This document shows positions 7,108 to 51,263 of a stretch of 64,000 nucleotides of DNA, piece after piece; the stretch's first letter is position 1; each line of letters opens with the position of its first letter. The stretch is from Candidatus Bathyarchaeota archaeon. Lineage in GTDB: Archaea > Thermoproteota > Bathyarchaeia > Bathyarchaeales > Bathycorpusculaceae. The stretch covers positions 224,001-288,000 of the forward strand of contig CAVYXJ010000010.1 of the NCBI GenBank assembly GCA_963772455.1. The letters are read 5' to 3'. Below the pieces are notes generated by a model that made no database searches, was not told where the DNA came from, and saw only the letters and a list, made by a program, of their open reading frames with translations. The position numbers and the translations under genes are program-made.

Positions 7108-8202
7108 CTATTTTTTACGTAAGCTCTCAGGTATATAGGCGCATGCTGGATCAGATTCAGTGATGTCGCCTGTGTAAGCGTACGCTCGATTTCTGCATCC
7201 GCCGCAAATTTCACGATATTCGCAGACGCCGCATTTGCCTTTCAATACGTTTCGATCTTGGAATTTATTATAGTACTTGGAAGCTTTGATTTCATCCCAT
7301 GCCGTGGATAAACTTTTGCTTCGTATGTTTCCTAGCATCATAGGTTCGGACGGTTGTAGGTCAGTGTAAAAGCACGGAATCAAATCGCCATTTTCGGTTA
7401 CGCTAAGGTATCCTCCAAAGGCGAAGTAGGTGCATTTGCCATGAAATTCTTTTTCGTACCATTCGTCGAACTCTTTTTCGGGGATTCTCTGTTTTACTAC
7501 CCTAGAAAAGTGTGGGCAGTGAACATGAACTTCAAATTTGCCTCTGTATTTGGTTGTTATATCCCAGATGTGGTTGAGTACCCATTCGTATTGTTCTGGA
7601 GTGGGCGTTAGGTCCATTGTGGCTTTTGCCCGTCCACTGGGCACAAGATGATTGTACCAAACAAAGTTTGCATGATATTTATCAGCTAATTCGGCAACGT
7701 GGTCAAGGTGCTTGTAATTTATAGTTGTGATAGCGCAAGCTAAACCGTTGAGAATTTTGCCCTTAGACAATTTTTCGATTGCAGCAAGAGCTTTCTTGTA
7801 TGAGCCTTCTCCGCGTAGTTGATCATTAATTTCTTCAGGTCCATCGATGCTTACTGAAGTCCAAACTTGATTTTTTACCAAGTTATCATATATTTTTCCA
7901 TCAACAAAGACCCCGTTGGTTAATAGACAGACGTTTAAGCCTTTATTTTTGGCATAAGTCACAATTTCAAAAATATCAGGGCGTGTTAAGGGTTCGCCGC
8001 CTTTTATGCCAAACCATCTTACTCCAAAGCTTTTAACTTCATCAACTAAGTGAAAGGCTTCTTGGGTTGTCATTTCTCTTAGAGAATGCGAGCCTGTCGC
8101 GTCGACGTTGCAGTATTTGCAGCGAGCATTGCAAGCGCCTGTTGCTCTCCAAGAAGTCATAAGTAAAGGACCCTTCTTCTCTGTCAAGTAAAATCCCCTC
8201 AA
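7108..8202 (-). CDS. Radical SAM/SPASM domain protein
   Basis: CNARCKYC, GGEPL, C-terminal SPASM motif CT…GDLIPC…CGVCEYREICGGCR…DPAC. Confidence 0.9.
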   Translation of the reverse strand: MRGFYLTEKKGPLLMTSWRATGACNARCKYCNVDATGSHSLREMTTQEAFHLVDEVKSFGVRWFGIKGGEPLTRPDIFEIVTYAKNKGLNVCLLTNGVFVDGKIYDNLVKNQVWTSVSIDGPEEINDQLRGEGSYKKALAAIEKLSKGKILNGLACAITTINYKHLDHVAELADKYHANFVWYNHLVPSGRAKATMDLTPTPEQYEWVLNHIWDITTKYRGKFEVHVHCPHFSRVVKQRIPEKEFDEWYEKEFHGKCTYFAFGGYLSVTENGDLIPCFYTDLQPSEPMMLGNIRSKSLSTAWDEIKASKYYNKFQDRNVLKGKCGVCEYREICGGCRNRAYAYTGDITESDPACAYIPESLRKK

Positions 8203-32238: not shown

Positions 32239-33435
32239 ATGACGCATAAAGTCTGCTTCATCACGCCTGAGTACTGGCCGCTCTCTGGCGGAACAGGTGC
32301 GTACGTTTACTACCTCTCAAACGAACTCATGAAGAACGGCTACAGAATCCAAATCGTCACGGGGTCAAATCAAACCCAAGACATCCAAGTCAATCCACAG
32401 CTCGACGTTTCTTTCCTGAAAATCCCCAAGATCCCAGTCGTTAAATCTTTTATGCTTGCAGCCGCCAGCAGTCGCAAACTAAGCAGTATTCGCAGCACGG
32501 CCAATGTGGACATTACTCATCCACAGTTGCCCTTAACGCCCAACTTTGCAGTTCCGCCCAGCTTCGGCAAAGCCCTCATCTGCACTGTTCACTCCACATG
32601 GAAAGGCGAAGCTGAAGCCATCCGCGGCGAACCCTACAGCCGCCTCAACGCGAACGAAAAGTTCCTTGTAAGTTTTAATTGGTTTTTGCGGTTCTTCGAA
32701 GAAGGTATGCTTTCAAGGGCACGCAAGATTATTGCTGTTAGCAACTTCACGAAATGGGAGCTCACAAACTACTACAAGATTCCGGCCCACAAAATTCAAG
32801 TTATCCACAACGGCGTGGACATTAAAAAGTTCCAGCCAGCCGTCGACAAAAGAAAAGTCAAGGTGGCGATGGGGCTTAACCCCGATGACTTAGCCATTGT
32901 CTCGGTTGGGCGTCTTTATGCCCGTAAAGGGCTCTTTACCCTAATCGAATCCATGCCCGATGTCATCAAGAAGTTTCCTAAAGCCAAATTCATCGTCAGC
33001 GGCAAAGGACAAAGCGATGAAATGCACAAACTCAACGCTTACGCTGAGCGTTTAGGAGTCAGAGGCAACATTGTCTTCACAGGTTACACTCCCGATCGAG
33101 AATTGCCAAAACTCTACCAAGCTGCAGACGTTTTCGCTTTTAGCACCTTCTATGAGCATCACCCGTTTGCCGTGTTGGAAGCATTGGCAACAGGCTTGCC
33201 TGTGGTCACCACCACCGTGGGGGGTATTCCCGAAACTATCGACAGCGGTAAAAACGGTTATCTGGTTGAGCCTTTTAACCCGCGGCAATTTAGTGAAAAA
33301 ATCCTGCGCTTACTCGAGAATCCCGCTGAGGCACAAGAGATGGGTAAAAAAGCGCGGCAGACCGTGGAGCAGCAGTTGGATTGGCGTATTGTAGTTAAAG
33401 AAGCCATGAAGGTTTATGATAAAGTGCTAGAATAA
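32239..33435 (+). CDS. Glycosyltransferase family 4
   Basis: PEYWPLSGG, IHNGVD, VGRLYARKG, EHHPFAVLEALATGLPVV. Confidence 0.9.
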   Translation: MTHKVCFITPEYWPLSGGTGAYVYYLSNELMKNGYRIQIVTGSNQTQDIQVNPQLDVSFLKIPKIPVVKSFMLAAASSRKLSSIRSTANVDITHPQLPLTPNFAVPPSFGKALICTVHSTWKGEAEAIRGEPYSRLNANEKFLVSFNWFLRFFEEGMLSRARKIIAVSNFTKWELTNYYKIPAHKIQVIHNGVDIKKFQPAVDKRKVKVAMGLNPDDLAIVSVGRLYARKGLFTLIESMPDVIKKFPKAKFIVSGKGQSDEMHKLNAYAERLGVRGNIVFTGYTPDRELPKLYQAADVFAFSTFYEHHPFAVLEALATGLPVVTTTVGGIPETIDSGKNGYLVEPFNPRQFSEKILRLLENPAEAQEMGKKARQTVEQQLDWRIVVKEAMKVYDKVLE

Positions 33436-33536
33436 TCCTAAGTTCCGGCAGACCAGACACTGACAGAATTGACAAAAGCATGTTAATAATGTTTAAGGGC
33501 ATTCTTCCTGCTTTGATAGCCGGTTGGTTATTTCGT

Positions 33537-34115
33537 TTGAGGGGTAAGTTATGGTCAATCGAGCAAGAGCGGCAACTTCGAAAGCTCGTCGCAGAGGGAG
33601 TTGGTATTGCCGAGATTTCTAATGTTATGGGTAAGACGCGTGTTTCTGTGAGGTCTAAAATGTACCATTTAGGTTTGACTGTAGTTGATGCAGCAGCAGT
33701 TTCCCCGACTGTTGCTGTATCAGTTGCATCAATTGCATCAGTTGCATCAACTCCTGAACCCATTATCGACCATGCACCCCTTGATCATGTCCCCTCTCAG
33801 GTTCCAATTATAGACCATCAACCCACTGTTAGCTCTGCATCTGCGCCTTGTCATAGTGAGGTTGACGCCGTTGCAGCTCAAGTCAAGGAGAATGCACCTT
33901 TGCCTACCATTGAGGAGCAGCTTCATGTTTTGAACGCTGCGATACTAGAATTGCGAAGGCCAGGTATTAGCCGGGCTGAAGTTGCAAGGAACTCAAAGAT
34001 TATTGATGGCGTAAAAGTCTACAATGAACTTTTCGCTAAATTTGTCGATTACCGAGGGCTCGAAACTAAAGTCTTGGAGTTAGAAAAACGGCTTGCCAAC
34101 GAAAAAAACCCGTAA
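33537..34115 (+). CDS. HTH-containing protein with low-complexity linker and C-terminal coiled coil; candidate terminase small subunit
   Basis: TTG start, RGKLWSIEQERQLRKLV…EISNVMGKTRVSVRSKMYHLGL HTH; 9-bp repeats (VAS/IAS) at about 33711-33749; overlaps the terminase gene. Confidence 0.55.
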   Translation: MRGKLWSIEQERQLRKLVAEGVGIAEISNVMGKTRVSVRSKMYHLGLTVVDAAAVSPTVAVSVASIASVASTPEPIIDHAPLDHVPSQVPIIDHQPTVSSASAPCHSEVDAVAAQVKENAPLPTIEEQLHVLNAAILELRRPGISRAEVARNSKIIDGVKVYNELFAKFVDYRGLETKVLELEKRLANEKNP

Positions 34116-35553
34116 TGTGCAGAGTCGTCGCAGATTCAACGCCAAAGAGATCCAAGCGCACTGGCAAAACCTGGACGAAGCATACAGAATTCGCCAGCAA
34201 GCCACACACGCAAAAATCGAAGCAGTTAAGGGTGACACGGCAGCGTTCTTCCAGCAAATCTGCCGCCTAAAATCCTTCAGCTACCAGTTGGAACTCGCAA
34301 AACTGTACCGTGAAAACCAGTTTTTGGCAGTTAGGTGGCCAAGGCAGACAGGCAAGAGCACTTCAATCGGTGGGTTGCTTTTGCAGGATGCCTACGAGAA
34401 CCCTGATCTAAACATTGGTTTTATTGGTCCAAGTTGGCGCCAAACTAAACGGAATCTTCGGCTGGTAGCGGGTTTTTGCCGCAACCTTCCCCAAGGAAGC
34501 TGCCATATCCAGAAAACCAGAATTAGCTTCAAAAATGGCTCAGTCATCGAAGCCTTCCCTAATAATTCTGATACAATCAGGGGCAACACATTTCATCGAC
34601 TTTGGTGGGATGAAACCAATTTTACAGCAGGAGATGAAGACCTCTACGACGCCATCCTATTTACTTTGACCACTACAAACGGCAAGTTAATAGCGAGTAG
34701 CACACCGTTTAATCGTGATTCACTATTCTGGAAAATGTGTAACCACAAGAACTATGCAGATTTTGTTAAGCAACATTTCAGCTGGGAGAAAGCTCTGGAT
34801 CCTTTGGGACCTTTGTATCCTGAGATGGTTGAACGCATCCGTAGGCAGTTTGGGGATGACCCTGCCAGGTGGCGCCGGGAGATGGAGGCTGAGTGGTCAG
34901 AGGACGAAGATGTCTGGTTGCACCAGAGCCTGATTGTTTCTTGTATTGGCACTTCCCAAAACTGTGGAGTTGACCTTGAAGCATTCGATCCGGAAAAAAA
35001 TTATCGTGGCAATTTTTTTGGAGGCTTAGATCTGGCTCAGACACGTGACTTTTGCGTATTTAGCGTAATAGAAAACCTCAACGGCAAACTGTATCTGCGG
35101 TTTTTGAAGATTTTTCATCAACCTACCACATATGCGCATGTTTTGGGATTTATCAAGCAGATTCAAGATCGCTTTGGCGGTTTTGACAAAATCCGTGTTG
35201 ATTATACGCGTGAAGGACCAAGCATCATCGCTGATATGGTAAATTCTGGCATAGATAACGCTGAAGGTGTAACCTTTAGTGTGCCACGAAAAAGCGAGAT
35301 GGCAAGTTTGCTAAAGCAGCGAATGTCAAACAACAAGTTTTTCTATCCACTTCTAAATTGGGAAAAACCCTATCGAGGAGACATCTGCACCGAGTTAAAC
35401 ATTGAACGCTTCGACTTACGCAAAGACGGCACCATAGGCTACTCACACCCCAATGGCACCCACGACGATGTCTTTTGGAGCATAGCATTAGCCGTATACG
35501 CAACAACCGACATGGCACCAGAACAATTCTTAACAGTAATTCCCCGAAGCTGA
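34093..35553 (+). CDS. Terminase large subunit (ATPase plus RNase H-like nuclease)
   Basis: Walker A RWPRQTGKST, IRG…Walker B LWWDE, coupling motif SSTP, REMEAEW, nuclease GGLDLA, DYT and HDD. Confidence 0.88.
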   Translation: MPTKKTRNVQSRRRFNAKEIQAHWQNLDEAYRIRQQATHAKIEAVKGDTAAFFQQICRLKSFSYQLELAKLYRENQFLAVRWPRQTGKSTSIGGLLLQDAYENPDLNIGFIGPSWRQTKRNLRLVAGFCRNLPQGSCHIQKTRISFKNGSVIEAFPNNSDTIRGNTFHRLWWDETNFTAGDEDLYDAILFTLTTTNGKLIASSTPFNRDSLFWKMCNHKNYADFVKQHFSWEKALDPLGPLYPEMVERIRRQFGDDPARWRREMEAEWSEDEDVWLHQSLIVSCIGTSQNCGVDLEAFDPEKNYRGNFFGGLDLAQTRDFCVFSVIENLNGKLYLRFLKIFHQPTTYAHVLGFIKQIQDRFGGFDKIRVDYTREGPSIIADMVNSGIDNAEGVTFSVPRKSEMASLLKQRMSNNKFFYPLLNWEKPYRGDICTELNIERFDLRKDGTIGYSHPNGTHDDVFWSIALAVYATTDMAPEQFLTVIPRS

Positions 35554-35575
35554 GGACTAAGTTAAGGCTAATTAT
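35288..35575 (+). repeat. Direct repeat copy 1 (terminase 3' end plus downstream bases)
   Basis: Matches 36548-36835, including ccccaa(t/c)ggcacccacgacga…ggagcatagcattagccgtatacgcaacaac and gactaagt(t/c)a(a/g)ggctaatta. Confidence 0.9.
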
Positions 35576-35732
35576 TTGGGGTTGGGGCGCCCGTGATACT
35601 AAAAAGTCTTGATAGCTAAATTCTTGCTTACTGATGACCTCTGATACTCTCTTGCATTAAATGAACTCAAATTTCTAACTAGCGATAAAGAATTTGAGAG
35701 GGCTAGTCAGTGTTGAATATTAAGAGACGGTT

Positions 35733-36179
35733 TCATGCTTTCATTTTTCTTGAAGTATCTTTAGGTATCGGATTTTCTAGTATGAGATCGCGCTCTTTGC
35801 AAAGTCTTTCAATATGATGGTCGTTGCTTATGATTACTGATATTTCGTTGATTTCTGCTGTCGCAATCAGGTTTGCATCAAAAGACCTGACCTTGTGAAC
35901 TTTGGCTATCTCCAAGGCTTTTCGGGCGATATCCACAGTTAATGGTAAGAACCTTATTTTTGCGCTTCTTGTTAACCCATCAAGCTTGTATGCGGCTTCC
36001 TCTCTTTCCACCTGATAATCTCCTACGAGGGCATGAAAAGTCTCCAGTAAACTAGTAGTGGCGATTGCTACTCTTGTTTTTCCATGTACGGCACTCTGCA
36101 GAAGCGGCCAACAATATGGGTGAGCATCGTGTTTCTCGAAGAGAGCGTAGGTAAGTATGTCTGCGTCGAGTATTCTCAT
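35733..36179 (-). CDS. VapC-like PIN domain toxin
   Basis: MRILDADILTY…LLE…SFDANLIATA…SNDHH. Confidence 0.88.
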   Translation of the reverse strand: MRILDADILTYALFEKHDAHPYCWPLLQSAVHGKTRVAIATTSLLETFHALVGDYQVEREEAAYKLDGLTRSAKIRFLPLTVDIARKALEIAKVHKVRSFDANLIATAEINEISVIISNDHHIERLCKERDLILENPIPKDTSRKMKA

Positions 36180-36412
36180 CGTTTCCATGCCTTCTCCCTT
36201 GAGAAAGCCTTCTTTCCTGATTCAGGATTTCCTGTTTTGCAGGGCTCTCTTAGAGAACGGATTGCCGAGTCGTCTTCATCGGTCAATGGAATTAGTTCAA
36301 TAGTATTTTCTCGAGCTACTAATTCCAGTTTGCAATCATCTGAAAGGCCATACTTTTCTCTGACTTCTTTTGGTATAACTATTCGTCCTTGTTTGTCAAT
36401 TGCAACTTCCAA
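36176..36412 (-). CDS. AbrB/MazE/SpoVT-family antitoxin
   Basis: IDKQGRIVIPKEVREKYGL; ATGA overlap with the PIN gene. Confidence 0.9.
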   Translation of the reverse strand: MEVAIDKQGRIVIPKEVREKYGLSDDCKLELVARENTIELIPLTDEDDSAIRSLREPCKTGNPESGKKAFSREKAWKR

Positions 36413-36547
36413 GTGGAATCACCATTTACCATTACCACTATTCTTGGATATAGCTTTTAACCTTTACTGTAGACGGAAATCGCGCCCTTCGCAAAGTCGT
36501 AGGAAATGGTGATCGTTGCTTGGAGTTATGGCTTCATTGTATCTCTA

Positions 36548-36813
36548 GCAAAAGCGAAATGGCAAGCCTACTAAAACAACGCATGCAAAACCAACAATTC
36601 CGCTTTCCCCTGCTCACTTGGGAGAAGCCCTACCGAAGCGACATATGCAGTGAACTCAACGTTGAAAAATACCAACTTCGCAAAGATGGCAACATAGGAT
36701 ACAGCCACCCCAACGGCACCCACGACGACGTCTTCTGGAGCATAGCATTAGCCGTATACGCAACAACAGACATGGCGCCTGAACCTTTCTTAACAGTAGT
36801 TCCCCGAAGCTAA
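36548..36813 (+). pseudogene. Second, 5'-truncated terminase large subunit C-terminus (direct repeat copy 2)
   Basis: KSEMASLLKQRM…HPNGTHDDVFWSIALAVYATTDMAPE..LTV.PRS, nearly identical in protein to the end of 34093-35553 but with many synonymous changes. Confidence 0.88.
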
Positions 36814-36840
36814 GACTAAGTCAGGGCTAATTACCTGCGT

Positions 36841-36871
36841 TAGTTGGGCTGCTGGGATTTGAACCTAGGAC
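36841..36871 (-). mobile_element. Degenerate tRNA 3'-end fragment (T-arm plus acceptor), att-like junction
   Basis: Minus strand reads GTCCTAGGTTCAAATCCCAGCAGCCCAACTA: GGTTCAAATCC T-loop, near-paired T-stem and CCA-like end. No 5' half is present. Confidence 0.6.
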
Positions 36872-38705
36872 AATTGAGGCTGACTCTCTGTCAACATCGG
36901 TTCCACGTCCGCCCATGGCAATTCATATATTTGCGGATTTTAAGGCTGGTGCATCATTGACTCCATCACCTGTCATTGCAACAACTTCGCCACTGGCTTT
37001 GAATGCATTGACTATTCGTAACTTTTGTTCTAGGACAACACGTGCAAAGATGTTTACTGTTTTGCATTTTGATTTTAACTCTTCATCGCTCATTAATTCA
37101 AGCTGAGGTCCAGTGATGCAATTCTCGGGAGATCTTAACCCTATTTGACGACCAATATTCTGCGTAGTTAATGGGTAATCTCCAGTAATCATAACTACTC
37201 GAATACCTGCGGCATAACATTCTTTCACTGCGCTGTCTACATTGGGTCGTACAGGATCAGCAAAACCTATGAGTCCTAGAAAGCTAAATTCAAAACCATG
37301 TTGTTCAATGGGTAATTCTGATTTTTTAAATGTGGCTTTTGCTACACCAAGTACCCTGAGGCCGTCTCCTGCTAATGTCTGAACGTTTTCGGACATTTGG
37401 TTAAGTTTTTTCTTGTCAAAGTGACAAAGATCCGCTATTGCTTCTCGAGCACCTTTTGAGGCAATTATGTAGTCTTGTCCATTGGGTGAAACCCAAACGT
37501 TAGACATCGCAAGTAGTTTGTGGGAGAGGGGTACTCCTGTAGTAGTTTCCAATCATCATGGATATGTTCAGATGTTGCGAATTCGCCTTCTGTGAAGGTT
37601 CGGATAGCTTTTTCCATTGAGTCAAACGGATCTTCTTTACATGCTAGAACACTAAATTCCACTAATTCGTTGCAGAGATCAGGTGGTGATTTGGTGTCAA
37701 CCGGTATATTGTATATTTTATCCTCAGCTACAAACTTGCTTACTGACATTTTGTTTTGCGTTAAAGTTCCTGTTTTGTCAACGCACAAAACGGTTGCTCC
37801 GCCAAGATTCTCGATTGCATGTACTTGTCTAGTTAACACATTTTTCTTAGACATACGCCAGGCGCCTAAAGCTAGAAAAATTGTTAGAACAACAGGAAAC
37901 TCTTCCGGCAGAATTGCCATAGCTAACGTGATTCCAGCTAAGATGCCTTCAATCCAGTCAAAACGGGTCAATCCGTAAACAATTATAATTATTGTGCATA
38001 AAGTAAGACCGACCAAGGCACTGTTTCTAACAATATGGCTTATTTCCTTCTTTAGTCTGGTTTCATCTCTCTCAACTTTTTGGAGAACAGTTCCGATTTT
38101 TCCCATCTCAGTTCTTGGACCAGTGCTTTTGACTTCTGCAATAGCTTGACCTTGAATCACTACGGTGCCAGAATAAGCAAAGGGCAAATCGTCGCCCCCT
38201 GATCGATAAGTTTGTTGTTCACCCTTTCAGGCGACTTTTCTGACTGGAATTGATTCTCCCGTTAGAAGTGATTCATCGACCATTAAATTGTTGGATGAAA
38301 GCAAAAGACAGTCTGCTGGGACGCGATCCCCTTCTGATAGAACAATGGTATCTCCGAAAACCACGTCACGCCCGGGTATTCTTTTTTGTTCACCATCCCG
38401 GATTACTACCAATGCTCTTGGACTAGAAATATTTTTTAATGCATCGAGTGCTTTTTCGGTTTTTTGTTCTTGATAGACCGTTATGCCGATTATGACGAAT
38501 ACAAAGCTTAGGAGAACTGCGCCTTCTGTTACATCTCCTAATAGGAAATAAAAGCTACCGCTAGCGATTAGTAATATGAAAATTGGTTCTTTAAGGATAC
38601 TTAAGCCTATTCGGAAAATACTCCGTTTTCCCGAGGCAGGCAATTCATTATAACCTGTTTCTTTCAACCTGGTGGAAGCTTCGTTACTTGAAAGCCCAGT
38701 TATGG
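36866..38705 (-). pseudogene. Cation-transporting P-type ATPase (type II) pseudogene, truncated before the C-terminal membrane helices
   Basis: TGES, PEEFP, DKTGTLT, KGARE, DPVRP, TGD and GDGVNDAP motifs. No start codon, in-frame TGA at 38227 and 36923, frameshift near 37525, ends at …SASIVL at the tRNA-like fragment. Confidence 0.9.
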
Positions 38706-48887: not shown

Positions 48888-49844
48888 TTACCCAATTTCG
48901 ACAGGTGTACCTCGATAAGCCATTGTGACCTTTTGAAAGAGCTTTACTATGTCTAGTGAGCAGAAAAGCGCTTTTGTTAGGTATTCATGTTGGTAAATCA
49001 TCATCTGTGCCTTCACGGGCAAATCGATTCTGGGTGGCTCAAATTTGCGTGCAACCTCCGCCACCTGCAAGCCATCGATGCCGATGTCTTCCTCGCGCAT
49101 GCCAGTCTTGTTGGCGATGTAGCCAAGGTAGGTTTTTTTCCAGTCCAACATCATTACTTTTGCGGCGACTATGTCCACCGCTAAAGCGTCGTCACCGGTA
49201 AGCATCAAATCCATCTTGACGGGTTTGCCTTTGGTGGGTCCGTTGCCTTCGATGCCGATTCGTGCATCCATTATGGTTAGTTGCGGCTTGAAAAGCGAGT
49301 AGAGTCGGTACATGACTTCAGGCAGGTAGGGGTGAAGGTAGATGCGTTTGTTGCTGGGTACGCAGCCGAAGAGGTTTTTGATGGCGCCGCTGTAAGCCAT
49401 AAACTCATGCGTCTTCATCAAGGGCAAATCCACCACCGCATCGGCGTCCAGCACAGTTTTTGGTAGAAACAGCCGTTTGAGGGGGCAGCCGTCTGGGAAT
49501 TTGACTTCGACGACTTTGTCTTCGGAGAGGTTGATGGCTTTGCCGCCTGCGGATTCCACGGCTTTCTGCATGCCTGTTTTGTCAAACGCGGTCCAGCAAG
49601 GATAGTTAAAGCCGTTGGATTCGCCTACGACAACTTCGCTGTTGCCGTCCCTTAATAGCCCGACGAGTTGATGCATAACCTGTGGGCTTGTTACTACGCC
49701 TGGCAAGTATTCGGGGTGGCTAAGGTTTGGCTTTATGAAAATCTTTCTTTTGCCATGTAACCCTGAGTCGGCGACGGCTTGGGCGACGATGCTGCTTACG
49801 TCGTCTCCTGCACGGTAAATCGTGACTTTGTGTGGGTTAGGCAT
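48888..49844 (-). CDS. DUF362 domain protein
   Basis: IFIKPNL, VTSP, VGES, LPLMKTH, SGAIKNLFG, EGNGP, DALAVD. Confidence 0.88.
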   Translation of the reverse strand: MPNPHKVTIYRAGDDVSSIVAQAVADSGLHGKRKIFIKPNLSHPEYLPGVVTSPQVMHQLVGLLRDGNSEVVVGESNGFNYPCWTAFDKTGMQKAVESAGGKAINLSEDKVVEVKFPDGCPLKRLFLPKTVLDADAVVDLPLMKTHEFMAYSGAIKNLFGCVPSNKRIYLHPYLPEVMYRLYSLFKPQLTIMDARIGIEGNGPTKGKPVKMDLMLTGDDALAVDIVAAKVMMLDWKKTYLGYIANKTGMREEDIGIDGLQVAEVARKFEPPRIDLPVKAQMMIYQHEYLTKALFCSLDIVKLFQKVTMAYRGTPVEIG

Positions 49845-51263
49845 GTTTTGACTTCACTCCTTGGAGGCATCCGGGGTCGCCGTTTAACATGTCTCCACTG
49901 TGGTATGCTGCGGAACGTGCTCGGCAGCCGCCGCAGATGAATTTGTAGGTGCATTTGCCGCAGGTACCCTTAAGGTTTGCTCGGTTGCGGAAGGCGTTGA
50001 ACAGCGGCGCGTTTAGCCAGATGTCCTGGAACTTTTCTGTCCTCAGGTTCCCGACGTTCACGGGCAAAAATACACACGGGTGGACATCGCCCTTTGGTGA
50101 GATTGAGCAGTAGAGTCTTCCTGCGCCGCATCCGCCGATGAATTCGCCAAGGGGGACGGCTTTTTTTGTGACTTTGACGGTTTGCATGTGAGCCATTGAC
50201 ATGGTGACTTCGTCTGTTCCCGCTGGACCCTGACATTGCAAGGCGACGCGAGCTAATTGGGGCGCCGTGGCTAGGATGGTTGTTTTGCAGCCCGCTGACA
50301 TCCGATTCAGCAGATAACGCATAACGTCCTCGCGTTCCTGCGGTGAGAGGTCTTGGTCGAAGTGGGCTTTGCCGCGTCCAGTCGGGATAAAATTGAAGTA
50401 GGTGAAGCGTTCCGCATGGATTTTCTCGGCTAAATCGATAATGGCAGGCAGCTCAGCCATGTTGTTCTTACCAACAGTAGTCGCGATGCAGACGCAAAGA
50501 TCCGCTTCAACGCAGTTTTTGAGTCCTGCAATAGCTTTGTCAAAGGTGCCTGGAACCCCGCGGAAGTCATCGTGGGTTTTAGCACAGGCGCCGTCGATGC
50601 TGACGTCGATGTAGTTGACTTTGGCTTCTTTAATTTTAGCTACGTTTTCTTTGGTGAGGAGCGTGCCGTTGGAAGCCAGCGAAACGTAGAGTCCGCGGTC
50701 GGAGGCATGTCGCGCAACTTGGAAGAAGTCTTTGCGCGTGAGAGGTTCTCCTCCCGAGAAAGCCAGAGCCGTCACGTGTGCATCGGCTAATTGATCGACA
50801 ACCGCCAAAGCCTGCTTAGTGGACAACTCCTCTTCCTCCACAGCGCCGCTGTTACTGTAGCAGTGTTTGCACTGTAAGTTGCATTTGTGAGTGAAATCCC
50901 AAACCACCAGAAACGGCGCAGTCAGCGAAATGGGTTTTTTGATGCCAAAATAATCAAATGATTGAACCAAATTTATAACCGCTGCTCGTGCATATCGGTC
51001 AGTTAAGAGTTTCTCGGCTTTCTCACGCTTAAATCCGAGGCCTTTTCGGAGGAACTCTATCCAGAAACCGATAATCTGAGAGTACAAACCGCTGCATTTG
51101 TCGCATTTGCGAGTCGATTTTGCCGCCGTAATCATCCAAAGCTGCTTCAAGGACTGTTCTGCCACATTTGCCGCATTTTTTTAGCGAGAGTTGGAGCATC
51201 TTCTTAGTCATTGGCAGGGAGATGACTGCGTTCCAGAAATGTGTCGTGGCTAAGGATGCTCAT
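49837..51263 (-). CDS. Radical SAM/SPASM protein with N-terminal paired CxxC domain, frameshifts near 51254 and 51118
   Basis: CNLQCKHC, GGEPL, GCGAGRLYC…PC…CGKCTYKFICGGCRAR…DPGC. N-terminus reconstructs as MSILATTHFWNAVISLPMTKKML…KCGKC…KCDKC. Confidence 0.85.

Follow-up and report, generated by a model that had tools for sequence, protein, structure and literature searches.

The DNA analysed here, a stretch of 64,000 nucleotides (nt) from a Candidatus Bathyarchaeota archaeon that we refer to as the window, contains at positions 33537-35553 an overlapping pair of genes encoding a small protein with a helix-turn-helix (HTH) and a coiled coil, followed by an intact terminase large subunit (TerL). 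The two genes overlap by 23 nt. Translation of the first one starts at a TTG codon at 33537, in agreement with the starts of its orthologs, and an alternative ATG is located at 33480. The coupling of an intact TerL to an HTH/coiled-coil gene had been put forward in the original prediction, and it was confirmed by the open reading frames (ORFs), by the matches to Terminase_6N and phrog_2, by the sequence motifs and by a structure model. The neighbouring features are listed in Table 1. Hereafter, G000 denotes the genome under study, G002, G010, G011, G014, G022, G023, G114 and G125 are related genomes, and W is the TerL of the window.

TerL matched the Pfam family Terminase_6N (2.9e-10), the PHROG family phrog_2, annotated as terminase large subunit (1.8e-34, residues 13-470), and phrog_5909 (residues 201-470). 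The motifs RQTGKST at residue 84, LWWDE at 170 and SSTP at 202 correspond to the Walker A, Walker B and STP/coupling motifs of TerL proteins, and GGLDLA at 310, RVDYT at 368 and THDDV at 456 to the three nuclease Asp motifs. The protein is thus predicted to consist of an N-terminal ATPase provided with Walker A, Walker B and coupling motifs and a C-terminal RNase-H-like nuclease that contains its three acidic motifs.

The small protein occupies the place of a terminase small subunit (TerS), its gene being located immediately upstream of the TerL gene and overlapping it. An AlphaFold model built with 24 homologs (mean predicted local distance difference test, pLDDT, 69.6) showed a three-helix N-terminal bundle (residues 8-45), a disordered low-complexity linker (51-105) and three further helices at 107-116, 125-140 and 146-190, the last one of 45 residues. 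The protein matched Pfam GcrA at 1.2e-4, under the family cut-off, and among the PHROG families only phrog_323, annotated as transcriptional regulator, and weakly. In a Foldseek comparison the N-terminal domain showed a weak likeness to the DNA-binding domain of GcrA (5yiu, TM-score 0.81 by target length) and to the Tc3 HTH, all with E values of at least 0.47, while gp16 of 44RR ranked 33rd with a probability of 0.20. No NCBIfam profile matched either protein of the pair. A predicted complex of TerL residues 1-300 with HTH residues 100-192 scored 0.01, a value that counts neither way on binding. Within the low-complexity linker, positions 33716-33750 contain three 9-nt tandem units (TGCATCAGT-like), which could be an expansion of the protein linker or a repeated DNA site; a 47-residue linker insert is present in the clade of the window and is lacking in the other clades.

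The original prediction described the pair as an orphan packaging module without recognisable virion genes, and the searches of the window and of the whole genome led us to the same conclusion. All window ORFs of at least 50 amino acids (aa) were compared with 1,419 proteins from 93 loci, of which 80 were viral contigs and 13 were provirus regions in related genomes. Many queries matched the HTH ORF (47), the TerL ORF (85) and the ORF of a second, partial TerL copy described below (85), and every other ORF was matched by at most two. No virion gene was recognised in the window by this comparison, which does not extend to replication genes that unrelated elements might carry, and the Pfam annotation covered part of the ORFs. 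The genome (2.45 Mb in 24 contigs, 92% complete) yielded no match to the Pfam families Phage_capsid, Phage_portal, SPP1_portal and Phage_tube_2, nor to the PHROG major head family phrog_267, and three weak matches to Phage_integrase, all on contigs other than that of the window. Virus-like matches were concentrated at four places with TerL or HTH sequences: the window copy; a second intact HTH-TerL pair on contig C9, with 66% identity to the window copy; a locus that we call b, about 63 kb upstream of the pair and in the opposite orientation; and the partial copy in the window. The copies within the genome share 66-80% of their protein sequence. The exception was a family of about 150 aa without a Pfam match, found outside the window, whose members are located, in some viral contigs, between the genes for tube and neck, and at ten or more places in G000 (on contigs C12, C18, C3, C19, C6, C23, C20 and C1; e.g. 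C12:167100-167564), each matched by 10-19 viral queries; these matches make it the second family that is shared with viruses and scattered over the host genome.

The relatives of the pair in viruses indicated its origin. In 80 IMG/VR contigs, with TerL proteins 48-72% identical, the genes follow a shared order of tail genes, c3, HTH, TerL and a gene for an ABC-ATPase/GNAT fusion, with HTH present in 78, c3 in 71 and ABC/GNAT in 69 of the 80. Proviruses of the same genus or order contain a block comprising scaffold, major head, c29, c16, c11, tail tube, c12, neck (HK97 gp10-like), c13, tail protein, c3, HTH, TerL and the ABC-ATPase/GNAT fusion; in sister genomes the scaffold matched phrog_673 (5.6e-16), the major head phrog_267 (2.9e-14) and the tube PF18906, and a neck gene was recognised as well. 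One block extends to a tyrosine integrase adjoining a tRNA-Leu gene. In the viral contigs and sister proviruses TerL is accompanied by the portal and capsid genes of its element, which is not the case in the window or in its genome. The source names of close homologs read Bathyarchaeota or Bathyarchaeia. The gene that comes after TerL in the viruses, for an ABC-type ATPase with a fused GNAT acetyltransferase-like region (phrog_293, 1.5e-35; L024:9474-10913), is absent beside the copies that stand without viral neighbours. A model of the virion protein c11 was unusable (mean pLDDT 43). Head-tailed proviruses of Bathyarchaeia are already in print, as passages of two reports indicate (PMC11697101; bioRxiv 2023.08.24.554615), and parts of these and of two further reports (PMC11529989, PMC13573593) describe proviruses of Bathyarchaeia or Asgard archaea.

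Several loci retain traces of attachment (att) sites. On contig C9 the copy forms an insert of 2.8 kb located precisely at the 3' end of a tRNA-Lys gene and closed by a direct repeat that matches the tRNA end in 19 of 22 nt, and in G010 the corresponding site is empty. In the locus of the window, as in its orthologs, a 20-nt spacer separates the TerL stop from a convergent tRNA 3' fragment, at whose position the b locus has an intact tRNA-Gly gene. Over 20 nt, the fragment in the window was 95% identical to the T-arm of one tRNA-Arg of the genome; it occurs once in the window and was matched in none of 100 shuffles, and G002 and G011 carry it too, after their TerL stop. A second such fragment, as expected for a left att site, was not found in the window at up to three mismatches, and the window contains no intact tRNA. 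These traces fit a proviral origin. Since the pair belongs to a fixed head-tail block in viral contigs and sister proviruses, it is best described as a remnant of tRNA-integrated proviruses, and gene order and sequence identify it as the packaging module of a tRNA-integrating family of head-tailed viruses of this Bathyarchaeia genus.

The original prediction had proposed counting copies and recording their neighbours across genomes, and this showed that pairs without viral neighbours are common. We labelled a copy solo when no tail, c3 or ABC/GNAT gene was present within about 9 kb; among 35 TerL sequences of at least 380 aa placed in a tree, 23 were solo, 10 were embedded in a provirus and two belonged to another provirus type. 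An HTH homolog was located directly upstream in 30 of the 35, that is, in all 30 of the ingroup, and the five without it are distant TerLs. In the solos both viral neighbours, c3 upstream and ABC/GNAT downstream, were gone at 12 or more different chromosomal contexts. A census of 120 genomes of the genus, cross-tabulated and with stops counted by hand, detected a large TerL match (E<=1e-120) in 66 genomes, amounting to 141 matches with up to six per genome, 128 of them without internal stops. The tail-tube profile matched in 34 of the 120; among the 66 TerL-positive genomes 39 had no tube match, and 20 of these 39 are at least 90% complete.

These distributions bear on two alternatives. Terminases could belong to a dispersed gene transfer agent (GTA), a host-controlled particle whose structural genes are located elsewhere in the chromosome, and G014, with structural blocks lacking HTH-TerL and HTH-TerL loci lacking adjacent virion genes, has the appearance that such a system would give. 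A 92%-complete genome that matches neither the structural genes of the family nor generic capsid, portal and tube profiles, together with the missing tube gene in the majority of TerL-positive genomes, makes this option, raised in the original prediction, the least probable of those considered here. The two blocks of G014 (L083, G014:C1:1676001-1696000; L084, G014:C1:2510001-2530000) run from c29 through c16, c11, tube, c12, neck and c13 to the tail gene and then show no c3, HTH, TerL or ABC/GNAT, and G014 also contains three HTH-TerL loci, one of which is broken, with no virion genes beside them. In this genome structural blocks occur uncoupled from terminases. The second alternative is a virus-independent transaction of host DNA, with the pair acting as a sequence-directed, ATP-dependent nuclease in repair, recombination or chromosome processing. 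Its conservation is like that of host genes and its surroundings are rich in recombination, and in four species inverted copies that face outward border a segment of 62-85 kb. However, the distribution is patchy, the number of paralogs varies, and solo and viral copies are intermingled in the tree, where no fewer than four changes of state are needed on well-supported branches, a pattern that argues for continued coupling to viruses. We regard a virus-independent enzyme as very improbable, if slightly less so than a dispersed GTA.

The solo copies are under constraint. Pairwise Nei-Gojobori estimates of the ratio of nonsynonymous to synonymous divergence (dN/dS) were 0.06-0.14 for TerL, at dS 0.3-2; they were 0.06-0.11 between solos and 0.035-0.094 between provirus copies. 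For both domains of the small protein they were 0.06-0.37. The syntenic solo TerL of contig C9 differed between G000 and G002 by dN 0.049 at dS 0.78, compared with dN 0.05-0.29 and dS of at least 1.07 for the flanking host genes, and in four syntenic solos beside a UbiD-like gene dN was 0.09-0.15 for TerL and 0.09-0.13 for the UbiD-like gene. Walker A was present in 22 of the 23 solo rows, Walker B and STP in all 23, as were the first two Asp motifs (GLDLA and RVDxT), and the canonical HDD third motif in 21. TerL in solo copies is thus under host-gene-like purifying selection that is not relaxed, and the syntenic copies co-diverge with the neighbouring host genes, as expected of vertical inheritance; horizontal spread is therefore rare. 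Proviral origin combined with purifying selection after loss of the provirus is what defines a domesticated gene of a defective prophage, and as far as sequences can tell the pair is one.

This constraint is difficult to reconcile with a plain decaying prophage relic, that is, neutral leftover DNA that has been neither deleted nor mutated so far. The original prediction would have accepted that explanation if homologs occurred only inside complete proviruses and this copy showed relaxed selection; homologs do occur in complete proviruses but are mostly outside them, and the dN/dS values show no relaxation. Decay is certainly visible around and among the copies: proviral origin is clear, the neighbouring P-type ATPase is a pseudogene, the b-locus copy is broken, internal stops interrupt 13 of the 141 matches in the genus, and 5'-truncated tails are many. 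Neutral DNA, however, would hardly retain dN/dS of this order at dS 0.3-2, a dN that in syntenic copies does not exceed the values of the host genes next to them, catalytic motifs in 21-23 of 23 solos, and the same two genes at 12 or more chromosomal contexts from which c3 and ABC/GNAT have gone. A plain relic is therefore improbable in our estimation, though less remote than the two preceding alternatives.

About 1 kb downstream of the pair the original prediction had recognised a diverged TerL tail, which does exist at 36550-36813 and is the second, partial copy referred to above; its reading as a sign that modules had arrived or duplicated repeatedly had to be abandoned. The DNA identity between 36550-36814 and 35290-35554 is 78%. 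The flanks of the window locus are orthologous to loci in G002, G011, G114 and G125, and a sliding comparison with G002 gave 95-100% DNA identity from 33540 to about 34330 and 60-80% from there on. Codons 81 to the end of TerL are closest to the b-locus copy of G125 (91.8% DNA identity, dN 0.017, dS 0.281, dN/dS 0.062). The tail, in turn, is 95% identical in DNA to the 3' end of the G002 TerL, without any amino-acid change over 86 codons (dN 0.000, dS 0.213), and 92% identical to that of G011. TerL is accordingly a mosaic, with the locus's own 'a' allele up to about 34330 and the allele of the paralogous b locus from there to its end. This pattern of identities implies that the TerL body was overwritten by a paralog allele, and it identifies the tail as the original TerL 3' end of the locus rather than as a second arrival. 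When the body was replaced with the allele from the paralogous locus, about 63 kb distant, the original 3' end was pushed downstream, and the same recombination event left a VapBC cassette between the present TerL gene and the tail. It took place recently compared with the split of the species. The higher dS of TerL than of its flanks, seen when W is compared with G002 and G011, and G010 with G023, is likewise explained by allele replacement.

An arrangement of full copy, cargo and tail is also present in G010, G022 and G023, the tails start at variable points (query residues ~371-461), and 5'-truncated TerL fragments are far commoner than 3'-truncated ones. In E. coli the 3' end of icd is duplicated at the attachment site of e14 or phage 21, and our locus resembles that case in having a full gene, inserted DNA and a diverged copy of the gene's own 3' end; it differs in the variable tail starts, in the lack of an integrase-bearing insert and in the origin of W by allele replacement from paralog to paralog. 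Site-specific integration of a cassette into the TerL 3' end was considered and discarded, as the tail starts vary and the tail of W is accounted for by recombination between paralogs.

Two outward-facing HTH-TerL loci bracket a segment of 62-85 kb in four species (in G000, C10:194425-195217 and window positions 33480-35553; also in G011, G002 and G125), and each TerL end adjoins a tRNA or a tRNA fragment. The window TerL is a recombinant of both bracketing loci, so the segment may be invertible.

Table 1. Genes and other features at and downstream of the HTH-TerL pair (positions in the window)
Feature	Position	Strand	Basis and remarks
Small HTH and coiled-coil protein, TerS-like partner	33537..34115	+	ORF calling; 192-211 aa depending on start
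Terminase large subunit, intact, 486 aa, mosaic of two alleles	34093..35553	+	Pfam, PHROG, motifs
Spacer of 20 nt after the TerL stop	35555..35574	+	Repeat D5; conserved at 36814-36833 after the tail
VapC-like PIN-domain toxin gene	35733..36188	-	Pfam PIN 3.7e-12
VapB / AbrB-MazE-like antitoxin gene	36176..36412	-	Pfam MazE_antitoxin 1.8e-07
Relic of 46 nt, like the 3' part of the VapC gene	36476..36521	.	Repeat D2, 78% identical to 35784-35829; directly before the tail
TerL tail, displaced original 3' end, last ~87 codons	36550..36813	+	ORF from 36520; about 1 kb past the TerL stop
Fragment like a tRNA 3' end (T-arm), convergent with TerL	36844..36865	-	att-site remnant
P-type ATPase pseudogene, three overlapping ORF pieces	36923..38667	-	Pfam E1-E2_ATPase and Hydrolase on three separate ORFs

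The VapC gene of the cassette between TerL and tail shares 82% DNA identity with a cassette next to a TerL tail in G022, and the 46-nt relic hints at an earlier VapC copy cut off at the tail junction. The P-type cation ATPase pseudogene lacks the C-terminal membrane half and abuts the tRNA-like fragment; DNA about 70% identical to it is found on contigs C11 and C14, and in G002 (L046) a gene of the same family is located between tRNA-Lys and the HTH-TerL pair. The segment 35575-35640, after the present TerL stop, was examined as a tRNA fragment and matched none of the 39 genomic tRNAs. On the other side, a gene for a GT4 glycosyltransferase ends 45 nt upstream of the pair. Its last 57-75 nt (window 33362-33437) are duplicated around inserts of 0.7-2.3 kb between the GT4 and HTH genes at L036 5862-5918 (G002) and L088 ~7423-7500 (G114), a further sign of an insertion hot spot. 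Elsewhere in the window, positions 49001-51000 reach a G+C content of 0.53, compared with about 0.37-0.45 on either side.

Such surroundings might suggest a selfish, helper-dependent element, either a minimal satellite or a transposon-like unit, with the pair copied or packaged by helper viruses without benefit to the host. The multiple copies (up to six large matches per genome), the replacement of alleles between loci, the 3' flank that is a hot spot for toxin-antitoxin cassettes and TerL tails, and the tRNA-type att sites would all agree with it. Nevertheless, terminal inverted repeats were not found, the sole inverted repeat in 33000-37200 being a 16-nt, 81% pair inside TerL; there was no sign of a target-site duplication, as the direct repeat D5 of 20 nt is part of the tail duplication; the window has no integrase match and no virus-shared replication gene; copies in the genome are only 66-80% identical; and syntenic copies diverge together with the host genes, at dS about 0.8-2. 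A helper-dependent element is thus unlikely, although we give it somewhat more credit than the other alternatives. A transposon or IS-like unit was rejected as a candidate, there being no flanking terminal inverted repeats, no end repeats other than the tail duplication D1 and the 20-nt spacer D5, and copies of low identity (66-80%).

Among the functional options of the original prediction, then, a GTA component lacks structural genes, and a self-sufficient satellite lacks a recognisable integrase or replication gene and a second att site and conflicts with vertical inheritance; a domesticated module for cutting or packaging DNA is the best fit, as a prediction. We lean, with modest confidence, towards the pair being a selectively retained packaging module that works with capsids supplied in trans. 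A bona fide role in defence or transduction for such a trans-acting module is a more tentative proposition.

Several of our data weigh against a retained, useful module. Some copies decay, as do the 13 with internal stops and the b locus, which has suffered a deletion and carries a TAG stop. A large TerL match is missing from 54 of the 120 genomes, and the module is therefore dispensable. PADLOC assigned none of the four proteins HTH, TerL, VapC and VapB to a defence family. The small protein matched no curated TerS profile in Pfam, PHROG or NCBIfam, its model gave nothing at E<=0.001 against the PDB with Foldseek, and its putative identity as a TerS derives from position and architecture. The tree comes from a quick IQ-TREE search, not a careful one, and the solo labels from simple ORF calling. 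Moreover, allele replacement, as in W and between L029 and L031, means that part of the constraint could date from residence in viruses.

The remainder of the provirus has disappeared on both sides of the pair, upstream with the tail genes and c3, and downstream with ABC/GNAT and the DNA leading to the integrase. Purifying selection has held the two genes intact through vertical inheritance, with occasional replacement of alleles between paralogous loci. A packaging module retained in this way could work in trans as follows. The HTH protein may bind a specific DNA site as a specificity subunit similar to a small terminase. TerL would cut at the HTH-bound site and, when docked on a portal, translocate DNA. 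As the motor needs a procapsid bearing a portal, and capsid genes are missing from the genome, the full cycle could take place only when a related virus infects the cell and provides procapsids or DNA. The outcome would be that packaging by the related virus is diverted or broken (defence), that host DNA is packaged from the locus outward (transduction), or both. In its most far-reaching form, which we offer as a speculation that may well prove wrong, Bathyarchaeia would keep several diversified paralogs of a complete viral terminase holoenzyme, as chromosomal genes and without capsid genes, that act in trans on infecting relatives of the ancestral virus, either as a packaging-site nuclease or capsid thief that aborts assembly, or as a 'capsid-less GTA' that begins packaging at the locus and exports adjacent host DNA in the particles of the invader. 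In all of this the enzymatic activity, the action in trans and the benefit to the host are inferred; what the sequences show is the viral origin, the orphan state, the intact motifs, the selection and the history of recombination.

The pair has counterparts among known systems, with which it agrees in part. It shares with the TerL of tailed viruses (Terminase_6/phrog_2, with relatives labelled 'FluMu gp28-like') the two-domain architecture of ATPase and nuclease with all motifs, the overlapping small partner in front, predicted to bind DNA, and, in the viral contigs, the head-tail block; it differs in that the window pair, like most copies in the genus, stands apart from any portal, capsid or tail genes and is conserved like a chromosomal gene. 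GTAs such as RcGTA need a head-tail gene cluster encoded by the host. The likeness to them consists in virus-derived packaging functions maintained by the host under purifying selection, but no head-tail cluster was found in our 92%-complete genome. Phage satellites may carry their own packaging genes, terS in phage-inducible chromosomal islands (PICIs) and terS/terL in capsid-forming PICIs (cf-PICIs). Like those of PICI-type satellites, the genes of the pair reside in the host and would act as packaging-specificity genes on the virion parts of a helper; unlike PICIs, cf-PICIs and P4-like satellites, the pair has no integrase, regulation, capsid or virus-shared replication genes, defines no excisable unit and is inherited vertically. 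Whereas a satellite would have integrase, replication and regulation genes and two att sites, a single tRNA-like fragment was found in the window and no integrase match on its contig.

Further counterparts are the defective prophage genes of bacteria that Bobay et al. reportedly described in 2014 as domesticated or 'grounded'. In both cases a provirus remnant is fixed after loss of the integrase and purifying selection acts on the genes that are kept; the difference is that here it is the terminase pair itself that is kept, repeatedly, and in an archaeon. In incomplete bacterial prophages, according to passages of one study, terminase and portal genes are preferentially lost while tail-fibre, integrase and transposase genes are retained (PMC7744054). 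The portions of the literature on orphan or domesticated terminases that we consulted contained no description of solo terminase pairs in archaea, and supplements could list such remnants. The phenomenon is thus of a known kind, domesticated prophage genes, and what is unusual is which gene class was kept, the terminase pair, and how widely.

In summary, the survivor throughout the genus is the terminase pair, often in several paralogs, under constraint like that of host genes and frequently without cognate virion genes, the opposite of what is seen in bacteria. Terminases are a hallmark for calling proviruses; our results indicate that a lone TerL match in these genomes should not be taken as a provirus. 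Bathyarchaeia are among the most abundant archaeal groups of sediments, and if the pair is active it would represent a new kind of virus-host interface, operating through sabotage of packaging as a defence or through virus-assisted gene transfer. Either use in trans, defence or transduction, would, if true, be a previously undescribed role for a packaging motor, and a concrete pair of proteins is available for testing it.

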